From assembly GCA_051880395.1 (NCBI GenBank), contig JBJENW010000108.1:3677-67676 (forward strand): 64,000 nt of DNA, written 5' to 3'. Below, piece after piece: positions 12,767-29,275 of this stretch. The notes beneath the pieces are model-generated. The model saw only the letters and a program-made list of their open reading frames with translations. It was not told where the DNA came from and searched no databases. The position numbers and the translations under genes were made by a program. Position 1 is the first letter of the stretch. Every line of letters begins with the position of its first letter. Source of the stretch: Lachnospiraceae bacterium. Lineage in GTDB: Bacteria > Bacillota > Clostridia > Lachnospirales > Lachnospiraceae.

Positions 12767-14686
12767 TTATTCTTCTGATTCGGTCTCGTCTTTGTCGTCC
12801 GTTAAAAGTGCTTTCATACTTAAGCTGATCTTCTTTTCTTCCTCGTTAAAATCTACGATTTTTGCTTCGATTTCCTGTCCGACTTTTAATACATCCGCCG
12901 GTTTTTCTACGTGCTCTTTTGCAATCTGGGATACATGTAACAATGCATCTACGCCCGGAGCCAGTTCTATGAATGCACCGAAATCTGTCATTCTTGCAAC
13001 TTTTCCGTTTACAATGTTTCCAACTGCAAATTTTTCAGCAGCATTATTCCAAGGATTTTCATCTTCAAATTTCATGCTGAGTGCAATCTTTGTACCGTTG
13101 ATATCCTTGATGAATACTTTTACAACATCACCTACTTTAAATACTTTCTTCGGGTTTTCTACTCTTCCCCAAGACATTTCAGAGATGTGCAGTAATCCGT
13201 CTGCTCCGCCAAGATCGATAAATGCACCGAAATCTGTAACGTTTTTCACGGTTCCTTCGATCACATCGCCAACATTGATTTTTGCAAATAATTCTTTCTG
13301 TAATTCTTCTTTTTTTGCAACCAGTAACTGTTTTCTGTCACCGATGATTCTTCTTCTTCTCGGGTTAAACTCGCTGATTACGAATTCGATATCCTGATCT
13401 TTATATTTGCTCAGGTCTTTTTCGTATGTATCAGAAACGAGACTTGCCGGAATAAAGACTCTTGTTTCGTCAACAACAACACTCAAGCCACCATCGAGTA
13501 CCTGTGCCACTTTTGCTGTCAGCACTTCTTTGTTCTCGAATGCTTCCTCTAACCGTTTGCTTCCTTTTTCTGCTGCAAGACGTTTGTAAGTCAGTAATAC
13601 CTGTCCTTCACCGTCATTTACTTTCAATACCTTTGCTTCCATGGTATCACCAACGGAAACCTGTGTGGTTAAGTCAACATTCGGTTCGTTTGTGTACTCG
13701 TTACGGGTAATAATTCCGTCAGATTTGTAACCAATATTTAAAATAATCTCGTCCGGTTTCACATCAATAACGGTACCTTCGACTACCTCTCCATTTCTTA
13801 TTGTTTTTAATGATTCTTCTAACATTTGTTCAAAAGTCTGCTCTGACATTCTTTTTTGAACCTCCTCAATAATATTATTTGGGGTAGAAGCCCCTGCGGT
13901 AATACCTACGCTATCAACGGATCCAAACTGAGTTAAATCCAAGTCATCGAGTGTCTGTATATAGTAAGTATTTTCACATTCCTTTTTGCATATTTCAAAT
14001 AACTTCTGTGTGTTTGAGCTATGCTTTCCACCAATGACAATCATGGCATCAACGCACCCTGCAATGTCGTAACTTTCTCGCTGCCGTTTTTCGGTCGCAT
14101 TGCAGATAGTATTTAAAACACTTATATCATACCCTTTTTTCGAGATAATTTCAACTAAATCTTGAAATTTCTTGTAATTAAATGTCGTTTGTGATACAAT
14201 ACACACCTTTTTGTGTGGATCAAGTTTCAATTTTTCAGCTTCCTGGGCCGAATTTACTACAAATGTGTACTCCGGATCGCTCCACCCACGAATGCCTTCT
14301 ACCTCCGGATGGGTCGGATTCCCGATGATCACGATCTGTTCTCCCAACGAACTATGTTCTTCCACAATACGATGGATTTTCAGAACAAACGGACATGTCG
14401 CATCTACAATGCGGAATCCATTTTTTTCCAATTTCTCATACACCTGTTTCGATACTCCGTGGGAACGGATCACGATAGTGGCAGCATTTAGTTTTTCTAA
14501 CTCTTTTAAATCTTCAATGACCTCCACACCTTTTTTTTTCAGATCATTGACCACCTCTTCATTGTGAATGATAGGACCAAACGTATACAAGGGTTTATTC
14601 CCTTTTTCCGCCTGTTCATACACCTGTTCCACCGCACGTTTTACACCAAAACAAAACCCTGCGCTTTCTGCTACCCGAACCTGCAT
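12767..14686 (-). CDS. ispH: bifunctional 4-hydroxy-3-methylbut-2-enyl diphosphate reductase / ribosomal protein S1-domain fusion
   Basis: The N-terminal ~280 aa are LytB/IspH-like (AGFCFGVKRAV, ATCPFV). The C-terminal half carries four S1 domains (e.g. GTVKNVTDFGAFIDLGGADGLLHISE). Confidence 0.9.
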   Translation of the reverse strand: MQVRVAESAGFCFGVKRAVEQVYEQAEKGNKPLYTFGPIIHNEEVVNDLKKKGVEVIEDLKELEKLNAATIVIRSHGVSKQVYEKLEKNGFRIVDATCPFVLKIHRIVEEHSSLGEQIVIIGNPTHPEVEGIRGWSDPEYTFVVNSAQEAEKLKLDPHKKVCIVSQTTFNYKKFQDLVEIISKKGYDISVLNTICNATEKRQRESYDIAGCVDAMIVIGGKHSSNTQKLFEICKKECENTYYIQTLDDLDLTQFGSVDSVGITAGASTPNNIIEEVQKRMSEQTFEQMLEESLKTIRNGEVVEGTVIDVKPDEIILNIGYKSDGIITRNEYTNEPNVDLTTQVSVGDTMEAKVLKVNDGEGQVLLTYKRLAAEKGSKRLEEAFENKEVLTAKVAQVLDGGLSVVVDETRVFIPASLVSDTYEKDLSKYKDQDIEFVISEFNPRRRRIIGDRKQLLVAKKEELQKELFAKINVGDVIEGTVKNVTDFGAFIDLGGADGLLHISEMSWGRVENPKKVFKVGDVVKVFIKDINGTKIALSMKFEDENPWNNAAEKFAVGNIVNGKVARMTDFGAFIELAPGVDALLHVSQIAKEHVEKPADVLKVGQEIEAKIVDFNEEEKKISLSMKALLTDDKDETESEE

Positions 14687-18591: not shown

Positions 18592-18801
18592 ATGGATTCT
18601 CCTTTTTAAAATTTTTTATATTTAAATTATACTCAACCATTACATTTTTTTCAACATCTACCGATACATATAGTAAGATTATAAATATACTAGAATGCGT
18701 ATACATTTTATCAAAGATTTGTTTTTTTATTGAAAACTGTCGCATTTTGGTGTACTATGTATATATATTATGGAATTTTCTATGAGTGGAGGAGAGGCTA
18801 C

Positions 18802-19179
18802 ATGAATCTTGAAAATATTTCAATTTTAATTGGTGATGATTCGATTCTTGCACGCAAACAATTAAAGGATGTACTAACTTCTTTTGGTGCAACACATTTT
18901 CTAGAAGGAGCGAACGGTGAGGAGGTTATTGAACTTTACAAGGCCAACAAACCGAATCTGGTTTTTCTTGATATTGTTATGCCTGTGAAAGACGGAATTA
19001 ATGCTGTCCGCGAAATCATCAACGTAAACCCGGATGCCGATATTGTTATGGTATCTTCTGTCGGAACGCAGGATCAATTGAAAGCTGCTATTAATGCCGG
19101 TGCGCATGATTTTATTCAGAAACCTTTAGATGCTGATCAGGTGCACGCAATCTTAAAAGTTCGATACGAAGGGAGATAG
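18802..19179 (+). CDS. cheY: CheY-like single-domain response regulator
   Basis: 125 aa from MNLENISILIGDDS, behind a GGAGGAGAGG RBS. The receiver residues are present: DD, FLDIVMP (phospho-Asp), SSVG and QKP. Confidence 0.85.
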   Translation: MNLENISILIGDDSILARKQLKDVLTSFGATHFLEGANGEEVIELYKANKPNLVFLDIVMPVKDGINAVREIINVNPDADIVMVSSVGTQDQLKAAINAGAHDFIQKPLDADQVHAILKVRYEGR

Positions 19180-19182
19180 AAT

Positions 19183-20064
19183 ATGTATACACAATTTTTT
19201 GGTAATTATCTCTTGCACCGTGGAGCGATCACACCAGAGCAGCTGATGGATGCAATGAAAGAAGAATCTTCTTCCCACATCAAGCTCGGTACTTTAGCGA
19301 TTCATTCCGGCTACATGACTGCAAGTGAAGTGGAAAACATTATTATTATGCAGACTCATCAGGATAAACGCTTTGGTGATCTTGCTGTGGAACAAGGATA
19401 TCTGACAAACGATCAGGTACGCGAATTGATTGAAACGCAGAATCCAAATTATTTATTACTTGGACAGATTTTAATCGAAAAGGGCTATCTGACACATTCT
19501 GAATTTGAAACCTTACTTTTGGATTATCAGTCAGAAAATGAAATTACTGAGCAGGATATTTCATCGAATGAGTTGGAACACATCCATACGCTGTTACGCA
19601 ACTTCTTGAAAACATTAGATTTTCAGGATCAGGATTATATCATTCAATATTTATCCCTGCTGTTTAATAATCTTATCCGATTTATCGGAGACGATTTTTC
19701 ACCGCTTGATCCGATTCCTTGCGAAGAGATTCCGATAACATACTGTATTTCTCAGCGAATCGGTGGTTCCATCCAGCTTCTCTCCGGATTAGAATTGGAC
19801 GAACCAACCGTCATCGCGTTCGCATCTCGCTATGTTGGTGACACCTTCACAGAATTCGATGAGTATGTAAAGGCTTCTGTTGAAGATTTCTTAAATTTAC
19901 ATAACGGACTGTTCAATGTCAATATGTCCAACAACAACTCGATCGAATTGTCTTTAGATCCACCGATGCGGATTGAAGATCCGATTTTCTCCTTAGAGGG
20001 AAAATCCTATCTCATTCCAATTGCTTATCCGTTTGGTATTCTTAATTTCATTTTGGCATTTTAA
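19183..20064 (+). CDS. protein with four tandem MshEN-type 24-residue motifs and a CheX-like C-terminal domain
   Basis: Residues 5-115 are four repeats of about 24 aa separated by 5-aa spacers. The pattern is xxGxx(L/A)(L/I/V)xxG(Y/A)(I/L/M)xxxx(L/V/F)xxx(I/L/M)xxQ. The C-terminal ASVEDFLNLHNG resembles the CheC/CheX E/D-x2-N-x3-G active-site helix. The gene starts 4 nt after cheY. Confidence 0.55.
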   Translation: MYTQFFGNYLLHRGAITPEQLMDAMKEESSSHIKLGTLAIHSGYMTASEVENIIIMQTHQDKRFGDLAVEQGYLTNDQVRELIETQNPNYLLLGQILIEKGYLTHSEFETLLLDYQSENEITEQDISSNELEHIHTLLRNFLKTLDFQDQDYIIQYLSLLFNNLIRFIGDDFSPLDPIPCEEIPITYCISQRIGGSIQLLSGLELDEPTVIAFASRYVGDTFTEFDEYVKASVEDFLNLHNGLFNVNMSNNNSIELSLDPPMRIEDPIFSLEGKSYLIPIAYPFGILNFILAF

Positions 20065-20105
20065 AAATCCAGGGTTTCCACTTTTTCGGAAACCCTGGAT
20101 TTTTA
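20064..20105. terminator. bidirectional terminator (cheY operon / thrC)
   Basis: AAAAATCCAGGGTTTCC-ACTTTTTC-GGAAACCCTGGATTTTT. Confidence 0.85.
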
Positions 20106-21607: not shown

Positions 21608-21749
21608 TTATCCATCCATCCTTCTTATTTCAAAAATTTTTCTACTATGTAAAACTACACCATCTCATTATACGCGATAAAATCGCTCCCTGTCAATCAC
21701 ATTTCCCGGATTCCTCTAAAAATATCTCAACCATCGTTGGTATCCCCAC

Positions 21750-21947
21750 GCGGACGTTTCGCAACACGCCGGGCATCTCTGCGAAAAACACGGCTCCTGT
21801 TCAGGTAAGCTAACTCTTAAGATTCTCTAAGACACTCAGGATCGCCTTCGTGCCTAAGAGAATCTAAAGAGTGGATCTCACCTGCACCCGCCGAAACGTT
21901 TTTTCGCAGAGATGCCCGGCGTGTTGCGAAACTGTGTACTGGAAACG
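21750..21947. repeat. hairpin repeat, copy D (same ends as A, different interior)
   Basis: Ends GCGGACGTTTC...GAAACTGTGTACTGGAAACG. The 33-bp outer stem GTTTCGCAACACGCCGGGCATCTCTGCGAAAAA pairs perfectly with TTTTTCGCAGAGATGCCCGGCGTGTTGCGAAAC. Confidence 0.8.
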
Positions 21948-21975
21948 GAAAAGATCTCAACCAATCGGTTTCATT

Positions 21976-22062
21976 ACACAGTTTTCGGTATCCGGCAGGA
22001 GGCAAGGACCGGAAACTGTGTATTGGAAACGCTAGGTTGAAATATCTTAACCTCCCGTTTCC
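21976..22062. repeat. minimal copies of the same repeat ends (two short hairpins)
   Basis: First hairpin: ACACAGTTTTCGGT...ACCGGAAACTGTGTATTGGAAACG. Second hairpin: GGAAACGCTAGGTT...AACCTCCCGTTTCC. Confidence 0.6.
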
Positions 22063-22066
22063 GATA

Positions 22067-22402
22067 GACAGTTTCCGAAATTTGGCTGGGTGGGCAAGGC
22101 GGGGCGGCTGCTTTCAGAAGGGCTTTGACAGAAATGTTAGTGAGTTTGGGTGGACAAATCTGCGATGCCTTTGCTGTTTTGCCGAGAGGCGTACAAGCTG
22201 TGCGTAGGTGTATGCGGGAGAAAGAGTCCGCTTCTGAGTCTTTCTCCCACATACACCTGCGTGCAGCTTGTACGACATTCGGAAAACTGCAAAAATAAAG
22301 CATCGCAGATTTGCCCGCCCAAACTCGACTTCATTTCTGTCTAGCCCTTCTGAAAGCAGCCGCCCCGCCTTGCCCATCCAGCCAAATTTCGGAAACGTCC
22401 GC
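22067..22402. repeat. long hairpin-forming intergenic repeat, copy C (same orientation and core as B)
   Basis: GACAGTTTCCGAAATTTGGCTGGGTGGGCAAGGCGGGGCGGCTGCTTTCAGAAGGGC pairs with its complement and ends GGAAACGTCCGC. The core TTTGACAGAAATGTTAGTGAG...TGCGATGCCTTTGCTGT is shared with B. Confidence 0.85.
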
Positions 22403-22413
22403 ATAGAAAACAC

Positions 22414-23613
22414 TCAAATCCCCTGACAAAGCTGATTCATGGATAATACGATTCCCATGATGTCGGCCGAACATTTTTCCATGTTTTGGGACAGATAATT
22501 CACTTGAGAACGTGCTTTTTGAATCAAGGACTGGTTATAGTCCAAATGCTCCTGCAATTTATGCTGACGGTTGATGAGATTCTGCCGCTCTTTTTCTATC
22601 TCTTCGTCATCTAACAAAATATCGATCTGATCAAACCACAGTTTCTCATCTGTCAGATTCAACTCATGTAAAATCCTGCTTAATTTTTCCTCATAATATT
22701 CTAAATCATCGCTGGTTTCCATATACTTTTTACGCTGTTTCACACTGTCCATATACTGTTCCCATTCGTAAAGCAGCTCCTGACCACTTTTTACATGATA
22801 TTTTGCACAGGCATAATCAACCGCATTTGTTACATTCACATACTTCACTTTCATCTTATTTTCGCGCTCAATCGCATAATTCCGGTTGACGTTGATTTTA
22901 TGCAGTTCGGTAATATTGTACTGACGTTTCATAAAAATGCCAAATGTTAACATTGCGACAACAAAGATCAGAAGGAAAAATGCATTTTCACAATGCAGAC
23001 GAAATCCCTCCTTCAAAACAAATAGAAGCACGATCCCTACTCCACAGACACCACACAGACAATACAATAATTGCTGCAGCGTGGTCTGTTCTTCTGTCAG
23101 CTGTTCTTGTCGTATTGCCAACTGCTCTTTTTCGCTCGACAAATATTGCATATCTCGTTTCACGGCTGCCTGATATTTCTCGTTTGCCTGTAGGCGACGA
23201 ATCTCATCCGGCATTTCCTCTTCCTTCTGCTGCATCTGAAGAAAAATCGCATCTTCCATCCGATGGCCTGCTTTTCGGTAATTTTCTCTTGCATTTGTCA
23301 GTTTGCGCACATTTTGAACCGTCTCTTTGAGTTCCGCACTTTTTTCTTCCGGAAGTGCTTTCAGCTTTTCAATATCAGCCAGATAATCGCAAACCTCATG
23401 ATATTCTTTTCGACCTTCCTCTAACTCTTTTGTATTTTCCATGATCGTTTCACACTGAGAAACGATATAGTGTTCAATTTCCTCTCGATTACTTTTCGGT
23501 TTTGACACCCGCTCCACTGGCGGTAATTCCGGTTCTTCCTCCTCGCCAACCGAATATTGCTGAATCGGCTTTGACTGCTTTTCATTCTTTTTTTTCCAAT
23601 GAAACCACTTCAT
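22414..23613 (-). CDS. coiled-coil membrane protein, unknown function (4th gene of orphan operon)
   Basis: 399 aa. It has a charged, heptad-like N-terminal half, two hydrophobic helices (LLYCLCGVCGVGIVLLFVL and FFLLIFVVAMLTFGIFM) and a second coiled-coil-like half. A GGGGGAG RBS precedes it. Confidence 0.6.
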   Translation of the reverse strand: MKWFHWKKKNEKQSKPIQQYSVGEEEEPELPPVERVSKPKSNREEIEHYIVSQCETIMENTKELEEGRKEYHEVCDYLADIEKLKALPEEKSAELKETVQNVRKLTNARENYRKAGHRMEDAIFLQMQQKEEEMPDEIRRLQANEKYQAAVKRDMQYLSSEKEQLAIRQEQLTEEQTTLQQLLYCLCGVCGVGIVLLFVLKEGFRLHCENAFFLLIFVVAMLTFGIFMKRQYNITELHKINVNRNYAIERENKMKVKYVNVTNAVDYACAKYHVKSGQELLYEWEQYMDSVKQRKKYMETSDDLEYYEEKLSRILHELNLTDEKLWFDQIDILLDDEEIEKERQNLINRQHKLQEHLDYNQSLIQKARSQVNYLSQNMEKCSADIMGIVLSMNQLCQGI

Positions 23614-23637
23614 AAAAACTCCCCCTTATTTTCTTCA

Positions 23638-24462
23638 TCAGAAGACACATTTTTGCATATATTCATTTTTCCAGGCCGCCATGATCGTGTCCGCCTGTTC
23701 ATAAAACGCATTGATCTCTCCTTTTTCACGCAGTTCATACAACTGCTGCATCTGTGCATCTTCGACTAGTTGTTCCCTACTATTCTGATCCTTCAAAAAC
23801 GCTTCGATCTGATCCGAGGCATACTTTGCTTCTTCCATAAGACTTCGTGTCTTTTCTTCCCCATATGCCAAAAAACAGGATGCCCAGTACTCCTGCCCGA
23901 TCTGACTTGTATCTTGATAAGTGGAAGCCATTTCAAAACAATGCATCGCATCCTCAAATAAAAATATTCCGGCATAAGCAGTGCCGAGATTATTCCAAAC
24001 CTGACTTTGAAACACTGGTTTTTCCTCTTTTGTTTCAGAAAGCAGCAGTATTTTCCGATATTCCTGAATGGCAGCCACATATAAGTGTTTTTTTAGCATA
24101 CGGTCCGCACGCATTTTTTTTCGTTCTACCGGATTTTTCTTTTGAAACTCCTCAATCGTACTACATATCATAGAAATTTCCGAAGGTGTATGATATCCGC
24201 TCGCCTGTAAAAGACTTTCCATAAACAGCGCCACGTTTTTTCTTCGCCAATACAATTCCATTCGCTGCGCCAGGGAAGGCATTGCCAGCTCTTTTGTCAC
24301 CCATTCCAGAAATGACTGCCGCATAAAGGACGGCTGCGCCAGATCAATATTTTCCTGAATAAAATAGCTGATCTCCTCCAGGTTATAAAGATGCAATGAC
24401 AGTTCTTCTAACTCATACGGTGTTTGTGCCTGATTACGCCGGCATAAAATCACACTGCTCAT
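23638..24462 (-). CDS. helical / TPR-like protein, unknown function (3rd gene)
   Basis: 274 aa. The segment WNNLGTAYAGIFLFEDAMHCFEMAS is TPR-like. A strong AAGGGGGG RBS precedes it, with a 17-nt gap to the upstream gene. Confidence 0.55.
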   Translation of the reverse strand: MSSVILCRRNQAQTPYELEELSLHLYNLEEISYFIQENIDLAQPSFMRQSFLEWVTKELAMPSLAQRMELYWRRKNVALFMESLLQASGYHTPSEISMICSTIEEFQKKNPVERKKMRADRMLKKHLYVAAIQEYRKILLLSETKEEKPVFQSQVWNNLGTAYAGIFLFEDAMHCFEMASTYQDTSQIGQEYWASCFLAYGEEKTRSLMEEAKYASDQIEAFLKDQNSREQLVEDAQMQQLYELREKGEINAFYEQADTIMAAWKNEYMQKCVF

Positions 24463-24479
24463 TTCACATTCCCCCCTTT

Positions 24480-25712
24480 TTATAAACGAATCACATATTC
24501 CCAGGTTTGCCCGGTTGCAGCAAAAAATTCTCCGAATCCCTGATCTGTTAAAGACACCTTCACTTCCCGATCAGAAAGAGGTTCTGCTTTCACATGGAGC
24601 CGCGTCGTCCTTGGAGGCCGTTCGGGGAGTTCCGTTAACTGCAATGTCTGAATCTGTGCATTTCGACTTTGTGGCAATTGCAGATAAAAATCAATTGCTG
24701 ATGATTTATCAAGGATAATATCACATTCCCCTTTTGTCTCATACCAGTTTTCGCCGGCTGAGATCAGCGTAAACATACCATCCCCCTGTGCCCCCCGCAC
24801 TTTCATACTGACATTGACCTTCATCTCATTTTCGCCCATGTAGACAAACGGCCATTGCTGATTTGAATCCCGAATTGCTGCAAAATAACAGGCTCCTATG
24901 GAAAACAGATTTTTTCCCATAAAGGCTTTTCGATTCTTACACAAAATCTGCAGTGATTGCCGCATCCATCCTCCTTCAAACAAATCTCCTGTCAGATAGA
25001 CTGCTGAAACGATTCGCCCGGAAAGCTGTTGATTTGCCATTTCTGCAAATGCAGAATCTTTTTGTTCCCCAAGCGCTCCGAGTTTTTCTTCCGTAACCGT
25101 CACAAGCTGTGGACTGGTTTTCTGACTTCGTTCCAGACACCATGCAAAGATTTGATTCTCTTTTTCCCGAAACATCAAAACATCATGCAGCCACAGTTCC
25201 CGCTTCTGATTCAGCGTATATACATAAAAACTTTCTTTATAATTTTGAATATGCCAGTTTGCTGAGGAGATTCCTGCTTTTTTCAACGCCCATCCCAGTT
25301 TGCGCACCAGTTCTTTATTGACTTCCTCCATTGTAAGAACCAGCCGATCTACGCGAAACGGTGTTCCATTTTTTTCCGGAAGTGCCAGAACTTTCCGAAA
25401 AAACAACGCCAGAAGTTCAAACGCTTCGTAGCTTTCTTTGTCCCAGACGATTTTTTCTTCAGACATTGTTTTTTGTATTAAGTGATCTGCAAAACAAGGT
25501 TCGTTGAGCTGCATCTGCTTTTTTGCTTCATCCCCGTATAACCAATAGCTGGAATTTTTCTTATGTCCGATCACCAGAGGGATCTGATAGACATTTCTTC
25601 CTGCGACAGCACTCACCGTTTCCGGTTTTTCACTGTCTGCACGCATGAAACTGAGCATCACGCTTGTGTCACTGATATCCATGCCCGCATAACATCTTAT
25701 ACCTTCTATCAT
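24480..25712 (-). CDS. Hsp70/actin-fold ATPase-like protein without a substrate-binding domain (2nd gene)
   Basis: 410 aa. GMDISDTSVMLSF resembles Hsp70 phosphate-1 (GIDLGTTNS). RLVLTMEEVNKELVRKLGWALKKAGIS resembles the VITVPAYF...AG segment. VYLTGDLFEGGWMRQSL resembles the VLLVGGxTRxP adenosine motif. These are weak motif-level matches only. Confidence 0.5.
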   Translation of the reverse strand: MIEGIRCYAGMDISDTSVMLSFMRADSEKPETVSAVAGRNVYQIPLVIGHKKNSSYWLYGDEAKKQMQLNEPCFADHLIQKTMSEEKIVWDKESYEAFELLALFFRKVLALPEKNGTPFRVDRLVLTMEEVNKELVRKLGWALKKAGISSANWHIQNYKESFYVYTLNQKRELWLHDVLMFREKENQIFAWCLERSQKTSPQLVTVTEEKLGALGEQKDSAFAEMANQQLSGRIVSAVYLTGDLFEGGWMRQSLQILCKNRKAFMGKNLFSIGACYFAAIRDSNQQWPFVYMGENEMKVNVSMKVRGAQGDGMFTLISAGENWYETKGECDIILDKSSAIDFYLQLPQSRNAQIQTLQLTELPERPPRTTRLHVKAEPLSDREVKVSLTDQGFGEFFAATGQTWEYVIRL

Positions 25713-25729
25713 ATACTTCTCCCCCTTTT

Positions 25730-28700
25730 CTACAATATCAGGAACTGGTTGTTCACATTTTTCTCTCGACTTTTGTATTTTTCCATCAGACCAAGCATTG
25801 TTTCACTGTCTTCGAGTGCTCTCGATACTGCCATTCCGTTTAAAAGATCATATCGACTGTCATCATTTTCATTATAACCATCCGCATTCTGAATCACATT
25901 GCTTCCAGTAATATCCCATATACCATCGATTTTTTCCTGTACATAGTATTGAATTTTTTCCCCAAAGAACAACACAAAACTTTTGACATAAATCCCTTCA
26001 TACATTTCCTGCATTCGCTCTTTCTTGAAATCAACTTGCAGATCATATTCGGGTTGATAGCAGAGCATCACTTCTTTTCCCGGATCTGTGCGATACTCAA
26101 TAAATATTTTATCATAAAGATAAAATTCCTGCTGAATTTCATGAGGAAACTGTTTATAAAAACGGAAATACAAACCTTTCTGTATGCATTGTCCCAACAA
26201 GTCTTCGACAATTTCGCGTTCCGCCTGTGACAGACTCTGCTTCTGCGACAGCCATTGCAGTAATGCCAGCTCTCCCATTTGATTGATTGTATGTTCCTGA
26301 TACTGATGTAATAATTCTTCAAAAACAGACTCCGAAACAACCATCTTTTTCACAAAACTGCAATATGAATAGTAAGAAACATATGCTGCACAGATTTCAC
26401 TGCGACCACCGCTTTTGCAATAACTCTCATAAATCTCATCCGTATTTTCCACAAATACCGCCGTGGAAAGCATCTGAACCAGGAGACGTTCTTCCAGCTC
26501 TGCGGTATCCACCAGGAAATTCTTCGCCGTGCGAAAGAGTGCCGCCATTTTTGCGGTCGGTCCCTCATAATATTTGACCAGATAGTTCAGCAAAACATCA
26601 TTATATTTTCCTGCACGATACGCCGCCTCACTCAGATACAGTAGATTTTTTTCCCACTCATATGCGTGCTCTATGATCAAATAACTGCACAAAGAAAGAA
26701 GTCGTCCACTCTGCAATTGATCTACACTTCCACACGGAATCTGTTCGTATGCAGCTTCATACTCATGCAGTTCCACTAAAATCTCCACTGCCATCCTGTG
26801 TGCATCTCCATCGAGCAGTGAAAGATTTTCCTTTTTCAGATAAGGTGCTACCCGCTCAAAATCCCCCGCCTCATAACAATACCGAACTAACTCACAAATA
26901 AGCGTTTTTCGATATTCTTCGCGGATTTCTTTTGCTTTGATCAGATGCATCAGTAAATCCATTTTATCATTTTGCATCGCTTTTTCGACCGGACTACTCG
27001 AAAAATAATGCAGCAGATACGGAATCTTTTCCGGTGCCCATGAAATACATTTGCGTATATAATGTGATGGATGCATCAGTTTTTCCAGCTCGCAATCCTC
27101 TAAACCTGTCAAAAGATTTCCATATATATCTTCTAAAAGGATCACATAATTCGCAGAATAAACCTGCACATAAGCGATATGATTTACAAGTGGTACAACC
27201 TGCACTTTTTTCCACTCCTGCTGCGCTACTATGACGTAACGAATATCTGGTCGTTTGCAGACAAACTGACAAGTATAAAACAGTTCCGATAATTTCTTTG
27301 TAATTTCCGGATTAACCATTCCCGCTTCTAAAGCAGTATCATAAATCAGTGCCAGATTTGCATCCATATGATGTTGTTCCATCTGGCGCAATGCAAAATC
27401 TTCTATATTCTGCATATAATGTTCCAGCACATCCGGCTGCCTGTTACGATTTTTAATGATATTTACATACAATATCGCTTTTCGCGCTACCGGAAGCGTA
27501 TTTGTATTATATTGGAAATAAATCTGCACCTCTTTCGGCAATGGGTCCGTTCGCTGACTATCAATGGAAAGCAGATAGGATTCATATAGATTCGTGATAC
27601 GAAAATCTTTTTCGATTCCCATCGCATACCAATGCTGATACTGTACTCCGTATTTCGAAAAGCGAGTCAGATAACGGCAGATTATCTCTGCTAACTCCTC
27701 TGTCTGATATTGTTCATAACAACCGCACAAAATCTGATAGTTTTTTTCATCAAACGAACGCTCCATGGACAGTAATTTCAAAAAACGCTCCATCATCGCA
27801 TGTGTGAGCCCCTTTCTCTGAAGCCCCCACAATAAAATCCGTTTCTCATATGTTCCCAGTTTTTTCATCAGATTCGGTTCTTCCTGATAAAGATAAAATG
27901 CCTCCATATAGAAAAATGGACTGGCATGTCCGCTGCAAATGTGTTTTTCCAGTGCCTGTTGGCGTACCTTGTGATCGGTGAAATAATCTTCTCGTAAAAA
28001 CAAGAGCACCCAGAATAAAATCTCCGGTTTTCCTCTCTTTTGATAGATGACCTCTATCTCTTCTGTAAGCTTATTTACATAAGATGCTTCTCGCTCTATC
28101 AATGTCAAAAGATACAGATAATACGCCCATTCTGTCGTATCTGTCTCTTTAAAATGTTCGCGCTTAAATGCATCTAAAATCCATTCTGCTTCCTGTCGCT
28201 GTTTATTCAAAAGATACGCCTGTGCTTTCATCAAGCGATAAATATCCTGTTTTGTCAATCGAAACAATTGATCTAATAATTCATTTGACTTCTGACACCA
28301 TTCTCCCGTCACGATTTTCTGAAATCGATAATCCATATACAGTTTTGTTAATTCTGCCTGATATTTTTGTTTTTCCCAAATCAGCTTTTTCTGTTGAGGA
28401 TGTCGACTCGTCTGCTCCACCAAAAGTTCCACCTGCTCAATTTGATTCGTTCCTGCAATCGTAATGCGAATGAAATTTTTTCCATGATGCAGCTTTTGGG
28501 GATCGATCACATAAGGAATCTGCAGTACATCTCCCACAAAATCCTCTGTTTCAAACAATTGTTTACTAAAACAGATTCCCGCAGAATCTGCAGTGACCGA
28601 AAGACTGAGATACCCCCAGCTGTCTTTTTCAACCTGTAAAAGCTCCTGACTCGGTTCCTTGATATCTTGAAAATTACGCGTAGAATCCAATACACGAAAT

Positions 28701-29275
28701 GCGATCCGCTTTTTCTTTTTCAAACCACACAGATACTCTTCTACCGCCTGGCTGCCATTTGAATCCCGACAAATTTCCCGATATAATAATTTTGCCCGGT
28801 CATCTTCATTATGTAACAACTCCCGAAATGCCGATGAATGAAAAAACTGTTCGGCTTCTTTTGGCGCTGTCTGCGCCAGCCGTACAAAATCATGCATATG
28901 GCGCATCAACCCTGTACTTGTCTGTTGATAATTTCTTGTCACATATGCAACAAAAGAAAGGCTATATTCCCCACCGTTGCAAATAATTGAAAAAACACCT
29001 TTTTGAATATTTCCTTCCTCTAATCCTTCGCTATGAAATTTATATTTTACTCTGACCTGTGTACCGCTAAAACGGGCGATCTTACATTCCATTCTCCCAT
29101 TTGAAGAAAAAATCTGTCCCTCAATCGGAACACGATTCAGGCTATTGATCTGAAATTCTCCCGTGCAGCACTGTCCCAATGGAACATTCAATTCTATTTT
29201 TTCCACTGATAACTCTACAACCGGTCTGTCATAATTAAATTGTCCTCTTGCTAGTTCCTCTATCCGTCTCTGCAA
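25730..29275 (-). CDS. 1181-aa protein of unknown function (1st gene): N-terminal beta-rich module, long helical-repeat body, beta-rich C-terminus
   Basis: A single uninterrupted ORF with a TTG start at 29273-29275 behind a GGTGG RBS. I saw no catalytic motif, signal peptide or TM segment. From memory, homologues may be annotated as DUF5717 with a neighbouring DUF5716. I could not verify this here. Confidence 0.6.
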   Translation of the reverse strand: MQRRIEELARGQFNYDRPVVELSVEKIELNVPLGQCCTGEFQINSLNRVPIEGQIFSSNGRMECKIARFSGTQVRVKYKFHSEGLEEGNIQKGVFSIICNGGEYSLSFVAYVTRNYQQTSTGLMRHMHDFVRLAQTAPKEAEQFFHSSAFRELLHNEDDRAKLLYREICRDSNGSQAVEEYLCGLKKKKRIAFRVLDSTRNFQDIKEPSQELLQVEKDSWGYLSLSVTADSAGICFSKQLFETEDFVGDVLQIPYVIDPQKLHHGKNFIRITIAGTNQIEQVELLVEQTSRHPQQKKLIWEKQKYQAELTKLYMDYRFQKIVTGEWCQKSNELLDQLFRLTKQDIYRLMKAQAYLLNKQRQEAEWILDAFKREHFKETDTTEWAYYLYLLTLIEREASYVNKLTEEIEVIYQKRGKPEILFWVLLFLREDYFTDHKVRQQALEKHICSGHASPFFYMEAFYLYQEEPNLMKKLGTYEKRILLWGLQRKGLTHAMMERFLKLLSMERSFDEKNYQILCGCYEQYQTEELAEIICRYLTRFSKYGVQYQHWYAMGIEKDFRITNLYESYLLSIDSQRTDPLPKEVQIYFQYNTNTLPVARKAILYVNIIKNRNRQPDVLEHYMQNIEDFALRQMEQHHMDANLALIYDTALEAGMVNPEITKKLSELFYTCQFVCKRPDIRYVIVAQQEWKKVQVVPLVNHIAYVQVYSANYVILLEDIYGNLLTGLEDCELEKLMHPSHYIRKCISWAPEKIPYLLHYFSSSPVEKAMQNDKMDLLMHLIKAKEIREEYRKTLICELVRYCYEAGDFERVAPYLKKENLSLLDGDAHRMAVEILVELHEYEAAYEQIPCGSVDQLQSGRLLSLCSYLIIEHAYEWEKNLLYLSEAAYRAGKYNDVLLNYLVKYYEGPTAKMAALFRTAKNFLVDTAELEERLLVQMLSTAVFVENTDEIYESYCKSGGRSEICAAYVSYYSYCSFVKKMVVSESVFEELLHQYQEHTINQMGELALLQWLSQKQSLSQAEREIVEDLLGQCIQKGLYFRFYKQFPHEIQQEFYLYDKIFIEYRTDPGKEVMLCYQPEYDLQVDFKKERMQEMYEGIYVKSFVLFFGEKIQYYVQEKIDGIWDITGSNVIQNADGYNENDDSRYDLLNGMAVSRALEDSETMLGLMEKYKSREKNVNNQFLIL

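Follow-up and report, generated by a model that had tools for sequence, protein, structure and literature searches.

Does the gene at positions 19183-20064 (+) of the DNA stretch analysed here join a sensor of cyclic diguanylate (c-di-GMP) to a phosphatase of the chemotaxis regulator CheY, and which CheY would it serve? The stretch, hereafter the window, comprises 64,000 nucleotides (nt) of a Lachnospiraceae genome (assembly GCA_051880395.1, contig JBJENW010000108.1, positions 3,677 to 67,676 of the forward strand). According to the list of open reading frames (ORFs) of the window, the gene encodes a protein of 293 amino acids (aa), here termed MshEN-CheX, and follows a gene for a CheY-like protein, here termed cheY2. 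The initial annotation had described four tandem MshEN-type c-di-GMP-binding motifs fused to a CheX-like domain, and had read the protein as a c-di-GMP-gated phosphatase of phosphorylated CheY (CheY-P) or as a CheY-binding adaptor. In the current study the repeats and the domain were confirmed and the interpretation was partly supported. The sequence data are best explained by a CheY-P phosphatase that c-di-GMP regulates and that has a CheY partner of its own, and this reading is probably correct. The architecture itself is already catalogued and is experimentally uncharacterised; new here are the receiver partner with its natural fusions, the co-occurrence with CheA, the Glu/Asp variants of the active site and the evidence for a nested single site.

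18802..19179 (+): cheY2, single-domain CheY-like receiver of 125 aa (Pfam Response_reg, 83.3 bits)
19183..20064 (+): MshEN-CheX gene, encoding four MshEN units, a linker and a CheX domain (ORF list)

The N-terminal part of the protein consists of four 24-residue units (aa 5-28, 34-57, 63-86 and 92-115) with a period of exactly 29, separated by spacers of five residues each (SSSHI, THQDK and NPNYL). The same repeat with the same spacers had been described initially, with a fourth unit that was one residue too long, as it included Q116. Conservation of the units was tallied over 156 family representatives, to which the counts below refer.

19195..19266 (+): MshEN unit 1 (aa 5-28), degenerate; position 1 Phe, Tyr or Leu, Gly at position 3 (G3) in 142/156, Gly at position 10 (G10) in 63/156, position 24 variable (Gln, Glu or Lys)
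19282..19353 (+): MshEN unit 2 (aa 34-57), canonical KLG...G...Q; Lys or Arg at position 1 in 138, G3 in 145, G10 in 130 and Gln at position 24 (Q24) in 147 of 156
19369..19440 (+): MshEN unit 3 (aa 63-86), canonical RFG...G...Q; Arg or Lys at position 1 in 124, G3 in 143, G10 in 134 and Q24 in 145 of 156
19456..19527 (+): MshEN unit 4 (aa 92-115), degenerate; position 1 Leu, Ser or Val, G3 in 64/156, G10 in 87/156, position 24 Tyr or Phe

The assignment of the repeats to the MshEN type was borne out by the curated NCBIfam profile NF053729 ('c-di-GMP_motif, MshE-related'), which matched with 81.9 bits (E=2e-23, cut-off 38). When the six reading frames of the host genome were scanned, the score varied with register: units 1+2 (45.2 bits) and units 3+4 (42.6) pass the cut-off by themselves, and the 2+3 register reached 33.0. 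Pfam T2SSE_N did not match the whole protein or any of the pieces scanned, and the whole-protein Pfam scan returned only sub-threshold, unrelated matches (DUF4388 and FumaraseC_C), with neither T2SSE_N nor CheX among them. The profile check proposed for the N-terminus was thus divided in its outcome, negative for T2SSE_N and positive for the MshE-related motif model. In phmmer and profile searches the repeats aligned to the Vibrio cholerae MshE structure 5htl, to Thermus PilF and to N-terminal domains of PilB.

Structural comparison pointed in the same direction. An AlphaFold2 (AF2) model of aa 1-125 has a mean predicted local distance difference test score (pLDDT) of 82 and contains eight helices arranged as four hairpins. 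Its specific Foldseek matches in the PDB were limited to c-di-GMP-bound MshE (5htl) and the GSPII-B domain of PilF, covering 50-56 columns at a root-mean-square deviation (RMSD) of 0.8-1.1 Å and a probability of 0.82-1.00, but with E values of only 0.3-3. The comparison with the c-di-GMP-bound MshEN structure that had been suggested at the outset therefore had a positive result, as a pair of adjacent units superposes on 5htl within this RMSD.

In the work of Wang et al. (PMC5013675), MshEN_N is a 53-residue unit of two 24-residue motifs joined by a five-residue spacer. Mutation of the Gly at position 3 or of the hydrophobic residues at positions 2, 17 and 21 costs more than 10-fold in affinity, the Arg9 and Gln32 mutants change affinity less than 5-fold, and in the MshE structure the two motifs contact each other through positions 17 and 21 on one side and position 2 on the other. 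The critical residues are kept in all four units of the window protein at positions 2 (F6, L35, F64 and L93) and 3 (G7, G36, G65 and G94), and positions 17 (L21, V50, V79 and F108) and 21 (M25, I54, I83 and L112) are hydrophobic. Positions 1 and 24 are occupied by K34/Q57 and R63/Q86 in units 2 and 3, and by F5/E28 and L92/Y115 in units 1 and 4.

Conservation and covariation both bear on the number of sites that the four units form. Family-wide, the (K/R)-h-G...G...Q signature is kept only in units 2 and 3, of which unit 2 fits the relaxed MshEN pattern quoted in PMC5013675 and unit 3 aligns to motif I of MshE in 5htl. Position 21 of unit 2 is mostly His or Asn across the family, not hydrophobic. 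In a mean-field direct-coupling analysis of aa 1-120 (453 unique sequences; effective number of sequences, Meff, 234), the top 60 couplings included 15 between units 2 and 3 and nine between units 1 and 4, against one between units 1 and 2 and two between units 3 and 4. Coupled position pairs recur in both of the leading pairings (written as unit.position, u2.20-u3.5/u3.2 resembles u1.20-u4.6 and u1.17-u4.2, and u2.11-u3.19 resembles u1.11-u4.20), and they agree with the type of contact described in the MshE paper (17/21 against 2). When two subfamilies were taken separately, the pairs 1-4 and 2-3 still led the top 40 couplings, with weaker signals (Meff 83 and 145). Covariation also groups G36, Q57, G65 and Q86 together, which is what residues of one ligand site should show. 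The confidence of the AF2 model is highest over the spacer between units 2 and 3 and lower at the 1|2 and 3|4 spacers, which is the same direction as the pairing by covariation.

These results make it doubtful that the protein carries two complete modules, as was first proposed, since only units 2 and 3 keep the signature and since covariation pairs 2 with 3 and 1 with 4, not 1 with 2 and 3 with 4. The four repeats probably provide a single canonical site and not a tandem of two modules. We lean towards an arrangement in which the canonical c-di-GMP site would be built from units 2 and 3 and be enclosed by a degenerate second bundle of units 1 and 4. If this nested arrangement is true, the practice of counting tandem MshEN motifs as binding sites in genome surveys needs revision.

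The same data bear on another explanation, namely that the repeats are MshEN-like without binding c-di-GMP and act as a helical protein-interaction or dimerisation module, the protein being a CheX variant with an N-terminal extension. The degenerate outer units, the His or Asn that most family members have at position 21 of unit 2 and the existence of non-binding MshEN-like domains such as XpsE (PMC5013675) would fit such a module. It is made quite improbable by the retention of G3, G10 and Q24 in units 2 and 3 (130-147 of the representatives), by the covariation of G36, Q57, G65 and Q86, by an NF053729 score twice its cut-off, and by the 26 GGDEF matches in the host genome.

The remainder of the protein has the CheX fold that had been supposed for it, and its features are as follows.

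19528..19614 (+): helical linker (aa 116-144) of low model confidence (AF2 pLDDT 54 at aa 121-130; helices 123-128 and 131-141)
19615..20061 (+): CheX-fold domain (aa ~145-293; AF2 and Foldseek)
19873..19908 (+): catalytic-helix motif ASVEDFLNLHNG (aa 231-242), with D235 at 19885-19887 and N238 at 19894-19896 (profile alignment to 3hzh_B)
19960..19965 (+): P260-P261; P261 is the Pro of N-x22-P in the CheC/CheX motif, is invariant and aligns to 'PP' of Borrelia CheX

The full-length AF2 model has a mean pLDDT of 85.7, with values of 89-96 from residue 151 onward. The top 13 PDB matches in Foldseek, among them 3hm4, 1squ, 3iic, 1xko, 6vpw, 3h2d, 3h4y and 3hzh, were all CheX or CheX-like (E 2e-8 to 3e-6, target template modelling (TM) score 0.69-0.80), and CheC, FliY and FliM followed lower down. 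Sequence profiles gave a fainter signal. Pfam CheX (PF13690) reached 18.2 bits, against a gathering threshold of 27, when the C-terminal piece was scanned alone, and it was precomputed for some close relatives and for most type-2 relatives. The proposed Pfam check of the C-terminus was accordingly negative for the whole protein and sub-threshold for the piece, while the fold was positive. A single-sequence search of PDB sequences found MshE and PilF and did not find CheX; a profile built from relatives of the C-terminal part reached Borrelia CheX (3hzh_B) weakly, with E=0.0055.

In the alignment to Borrelia CheX, taken from its complex with CheY3 (3hzh_B), D235, N238 and G242 fall on the Glu, Asn and Gly of 'TEVGNIIAG'. 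The numbering of the 3hzh construct is offset by ~11, and we take the aligned Glu and Asn to be the catalytic E96 and N99 of the literature. The consensus of CheC/CheX active sites is D/S-x3-E-x2-N-x22-P. In MshEN-CheX, N238 and P261 stand at exactly this spacing, and the acid is D235 instead of the canonical Glu; position -4 is Ala, not Asp or Ser. CheX has one active site per chain, and CheC and FliY have two. MshEN-CheX has a single (D/E)xxN helix, and the CheC and FliY proteins of the host each have two ExxN motifs and match Pfam CheC.

Residues S232, D235, F236, N238-G242 and P261 were invariant in 40 relatives. A tally of the motif in 279 relatives gave 157 with DxxN and 115 with ExxN (the latter being the motif cited for CheX in PMC12799141), and five others were off at one of the two positions; the Asn was kept in 275 and an acid in 276. 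Divergent members carry the full canonical D-x3-E-x2-N, and two proteins with a receiver gene upstream (P0135 and P0143) carry ExxN. Because Glu is kept in divergent members and in some of the receiver-upstream proteins, the change to Asp appears to be conservative, specific to the clade and still under selection, not a sign of decay.

This substitution could alternatively mark lost catalysis, in which case the CheX-like domain would be a non-catalytic adaptor that binds CheY-P and sequesters or localises CheY2 according to c-di-GMP. The DxxN motif of the window clade, the Ala at position -4 and the sub-gathering Pfam score are what such an adaptor would lead one to expect. The invariance of D235, N238 and P261 in the 40 relatives is not, and the occurrence of both acids with an upstream receiver (ExxN in P0135 and P0143) suggests that they are interchangeable under the same selection. 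In CheZ, moreover, an Asp has the equivalent catalytic role (D143/Q147). We give the adaptor little credence.

As to which CheY is served, the upstream single-domain cheY reported in the initial annotation proved to be a phosphorylatable CheY-like receiver, separated from the MshEN-CheX gene by 3 nt. Its best NCBIfam match was CheY_Halo (99 bits, below the cut-off of 200), and it is 43% identical to the canonical CheY of the flagellar and chemotaxis (fla/che) gene cluster on contig C63 of the host, outside which cheY2 is located. Across 120 partner receivers, the equivalents of D12, D13, D57 and K109 are present in all, or in all but one that is gapped; the equivalent of Y106, the aromatic switch, is Phe in 119 and Tyr in one. 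The T87 equivalent in the CheY2 clade is Ser, as judged by eye.

The association of receiver and MshEN-CheX is maintained far beyond the window. Among loci collected by scanning public genomes, all 80 have a receiver gene immediately upstream, and the distance from stop to start is estimated at no more than ~15 nt. In a set of 121 loci the receiver was upstream in 90 and downstream in 20, was fused to the C-terminus in seven genera, and fell outside the distance window in four; in two of these four it is downstream, 127-190 nt beyond the stop. The C-terminal fusions with the receiver domain (REC) measure ~435 aa, and one of them scores 107.6 bits against Response_reg at residues 319-429. Such a Rosetta-stone pattern, in which the same partner occurs upstream, downstream and fused, provides the strongest evidence that the CheX domain would work with its own CheY-like protein.

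Two other regularities were considered for these loci and rejected. Frames of ~435-460 aa in seven genera had been candidates for N-terminal REC fusions, and their REC proved to lie at the C-terminus. A strict rule, in which an upstream REC goes with DxxN and a downstream or fused REC with ExxN, held in the 117 assignable loci of 121, and is broken outside this set by P0135 and P0143, which have REC upstream with ExxN.

A single metagenome contig of 1825 nt encodes a 422-aa protein (P0102) of REC-X layout, with the receiver at the N-terminus of MshEN-CheX ('...EGRSNMYAQFFG...'). In the window the 3-nt gap keeps cheY2 and the MshEN-CheX gene in frame; the P0102 fusion would arise by loss of an in-frame stop, and may either exist in nature or reflect an error of sequencing. 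Another genome (G007, contig C7) holds a stand-alone CheX-like paralogue of 199 aa without MshEN repeats (L107:1178-1777; Pfam CheX 40.6 bits, above gathering; ExxN), which is followed by a receiver gene, and a full-length MshEN-CheX copy is found in the same genome.

The C-terminal fusions allow a different division of labour, in which CheY2 or the fused REC is a regulatory input: phosphorylation by CheA would switch on the CheX domain, whose target would be the canonical motor CheY, and c-di-GMP would be the second input of a two-input gate. A C-terminal REC in seven genera is a layout typical of REC-regulated enzymes such as CheB, and the canonical CheY, the only CheY of the host besides CheY2, adjoins fliM/fliY on C63. 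A receiver that is a substrate tethered in cis would explain the fusions just as well, however, and since the active-site helix of CheX binds the receiver in 3hzh, the nearest conserved receiver is the simplest substrate. We regard the two-input gate as unlikely, and retain CheY2 as the likeliest substrate.

The signals around the two genes are listed below.

18730..18758 (+): promoter-like site TTGAAA-17-TACTAT 5' of cheY2 (consensus scan, 9/12 matches; weak evidence when taken alone)
19170..19175 (+): Shine-Dalgarno sequence AGGGAG of the MshEN-CheX gene, within the 3' end of cheY2 (read from the sequence)
20062..20105 (+): intrinsic terminator with an 18-bp stem followed by a T-run, common to the convergent thrC (terminator scan)

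The TAG stop of cheY2 ends at 19179 and is followed, after 3 nt, by the ATG of the MshEN-CheX gene at 19183, which lies 7 nt from the AGGGAG. The terminator scan showed no terminator-like site between the two genes, and the Rfam search of the intergenic region 18592-18801 showed no riboswitch (for instance for c-di-GMP) 5' of them. Citrate synthase is encoded upstream and threonine synthase (thrC) convergently downstream. By these signals, 18802-20064 is predicted to be a bicistronic operon of cheY2 and the MshEN-CheX gene.

The host possesses the machinery on which such an operon would act. Contig C63 carries a fla/che cluster of Bacillus type with FliM, FliY and CheY (FliY and CheY by Pfam, FliM from the order of the ORFs), with frames of the size of CheB, CheA and CheW, the CheA dimerisation domain PF02895 mapping there, and with CheC, CheD and a YcgR-like PilZ protein identified by Pfam. 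The last of these is a 258-aa protein (C63:11504-12280, -) between frames of FlhG and CheB size, with scores of 52.4 bits for PilZNR and 33.7 bits for PilZ. With MshEN-CheX counted, the host has no fewer than two candidate routes by which c-di-GMP could influence flagellar behaviour. One other MshEN-type match was detected in the host genome, in a 586-aa open frame.

Homologues of the MshEN-CheX protein number 2085, and ~303 clusters (50% identity) score E<=1e-30. With one genome sampled per genus, 72 of the 201 Lachnospiraceae genera had the gene; CheA was found together with it in 70 genera and without it in 32, and 97 had neither (Fisher p=3e-26). Full-length relatives are also found in about nine other families of the phylum, and the matches listed in a public scan include more than 524 species genomes. 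Roughly one Lachnospiraceae genus in three has the gene pair, and these genera are essentially the ones that possess chemotaxis genes; gut commensals such as Roseburia, Agathobacter, Lachnospira and Eubacterium-like bacteria are among them.

In the mechanism proposed here, CheY2 is a phosphorylatable CheY paralogue and MshEN-CheX a cytoplasmic protein, whose N-terminal array of four hairpins would sense c-di-GMP, chiefly at the central units 2 and 3, with units 1 and 4 forming a degenerate outer bundle around them. Binding of c-di-GMP may then alter how the CheX domain dimerises or how active it is as a phosphatase; this domain would dephosphorylate CheY-P, the likeliest substrate being phosphorylated CheY2, its own partner. 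The single CheA of the host probably phosphorylates CheY2 as well. By analogy, CheY2 and its phosphatase would form a branch that c-di-GMP can tune, the simplest version being a phosphate sink whose drain is regulated. As the sink would draw on the single CheA, it would raise or lower the amount of canonical CheY-P available at the motor.

The most specific form of this proposal, in which the canonical units 2 and 3 are inserted into the spacer of the degenerate units 1 and 4, bind one c-di-GMP and gate CheX on a dedicated CheY2 phosphate sink, is put forward tentatively as a possibility. To our knowledge, no phosphate-sink mechanism has been described for c-di-GMP. If the nested sensor and sink are real, c-di-GMP would set chemotactic gain or bias through the drain rate of the sink, and the mechanism would be widespread among flagellated Lachnospiraceae of the gut, Roseburia for example. 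Full-length covariation was also inspected for contacts between the sensor and CheX, and the inter-domain couplings were low, scattered and not interpretable; weak couplings of R166 with G65 and Q86 are a lead only.

Several points weigh against a c-di-GMP-regulated phosphatase with its own CheY, or against parts of it. The Arg or Lys of position 1 is missing from units 1 and 4, the Gln of position 24 is missing from unit 1, and XpsE illustrates that MshEN-like domains do not always bind c-di-GMP. In the CheX domain the Pfam score is below gathering, and with Asp for Glu and Ala at position -4 the activity could be altered. CheC and FliY are already present in the host genome, so that MshEN-CheX would be a third phosphatase. 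The nested pairing and the phosphate sink rest on covariation of modest Meff (~190-235) and on analogy, and a full-text literature search found no experimental work on an MshEN-CheX fusion.

It had been stated initially that no case of this architecture was described, which is incorrect. Wang et al. (2016, Nat Commun 7:12481, PMC5013675) mention MshEN fused to CheX in the text and propose a link between c-di-GMP and chemotaxis, and their Supplementary Table 4 lists '(MshEN_N)2 - CheX' for Geobacter lovleyi Glov_2742, Deltaproteobacteria and Firmicutes; relatives are also already named 'chemotaxis protein CheX' by NCBI. Their entry, likened here by description, shares with the window protein the order of MshEN-type repeats followed by CheX, and Firmicutes are among its taxa. 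It is a catalogue entry only, and differs in that a CheY partner, REC fusions, the Asp variant and unequal units are not mentioned.

Compared with the stand-alone CheX proteins of Borrelia burgdorferi (3hzh) and Thermotoga maritima (1xko and 1squ), MshEN-CheX has the same fold (target TM 0.72-0.80) and the same single catalytic helix, acid-x2-Asn-x22-Pro, in residue-for-residue alignment. It differs from them by ~145 additional N-terminal residues, by Asp for Glu in its clade and by an identity of only 14-17%. With the c-di-GMP receptors V. cholerae MshE (N-domain, 5htl) and Thermus thermophilus PilF (GSPII-B, 8pdk and others) it shares pairs of 24-residue motifs with a five-residue spacer. 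Unlike these, it has four contiguous units of which the outer two are degenerate, and has neither an MshEN_C subdomain nor an ATPase; covariation also suggests that units 2 and 3 are nested inside units 1 and 4 instead of forming tandem modules.

The nearest functional parallel is PlzC of V. cholerae (PNAS 2026, PMC12799141), a c-di-GMP receptor that controls CheX and thereby sets the CheY-P level and swimming reversals. Both systems would have a c-di-GMP receptor protein acting on a CheX phosphatase, but PlzC is a PilZ protein in its own right and needs no c-di-GMP to inhibit CheX, whereas the MshEN-type module of the window protein is fused to CheX. Other links between c-di-GMP and flagellar behaviour include the PilZ brakes YcgR and MotI, the CheY-like Cle proteins of Caulobacter and the MapZ-CheR1 pair of Pseudomonas. 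We know of none among YcgR/MotI, Cle and MapZ-CheR1 that gates a CheY-P phosphatase through a fused receptor. If the proposal made here is true, c-di-GMP would act directly on CheY-P turnover, and its path would be shorter than known ones such as those through PilZ motor brakes, MapZ-CheR or PlzC-CheX.

Judging from sequence, MshEN-CheX and CheY2 probably connect c-di-GMP, the 'settle or swim' messenger, to the chemotaxis system of this flagellated gut bacterium. Characterisation of one member would inform motility control across abundant human and animal gut bacteria, and the natural X-REC fusions and Glu/Asp variants of the active site are ready-made constructs for biochemistry.

The window also contains features unrelated to the operon. 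In the intergenic region past thrC lies a nested palindromic element (22071-22396), with arms at 22071-22124/22343-22396 (54 nt, 98% complementary), 22127-22171/22297-22341 and 22178-22228/22236-22286. Its core (22150-22310) has ~40 copies in the host genome, at 84-99% identity and often at contig ends, and the element looks like a repeat resembling miniature inverted-repeat transposable elements that breaks the assembly. The ORF-poor stretch around it (21608-22413) also holds a perfect 33-nt inverted repeat (21756-21788/21900-21932) and further imperfect palindromes; Rfam matched this stretch with spurious miRNA hairpin models only. Beyond the palindromic repeat, 22414-29275 (-) holds ORFs of 399, 274, 410 and 1181 aa on the same strand, with functions not evident by eye. 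At 12767-14686 (-) an ORF of 639 aa appears, by eye, to combine an IspH/LytB-like N-terminal half with C-terminal S1-type repeats.

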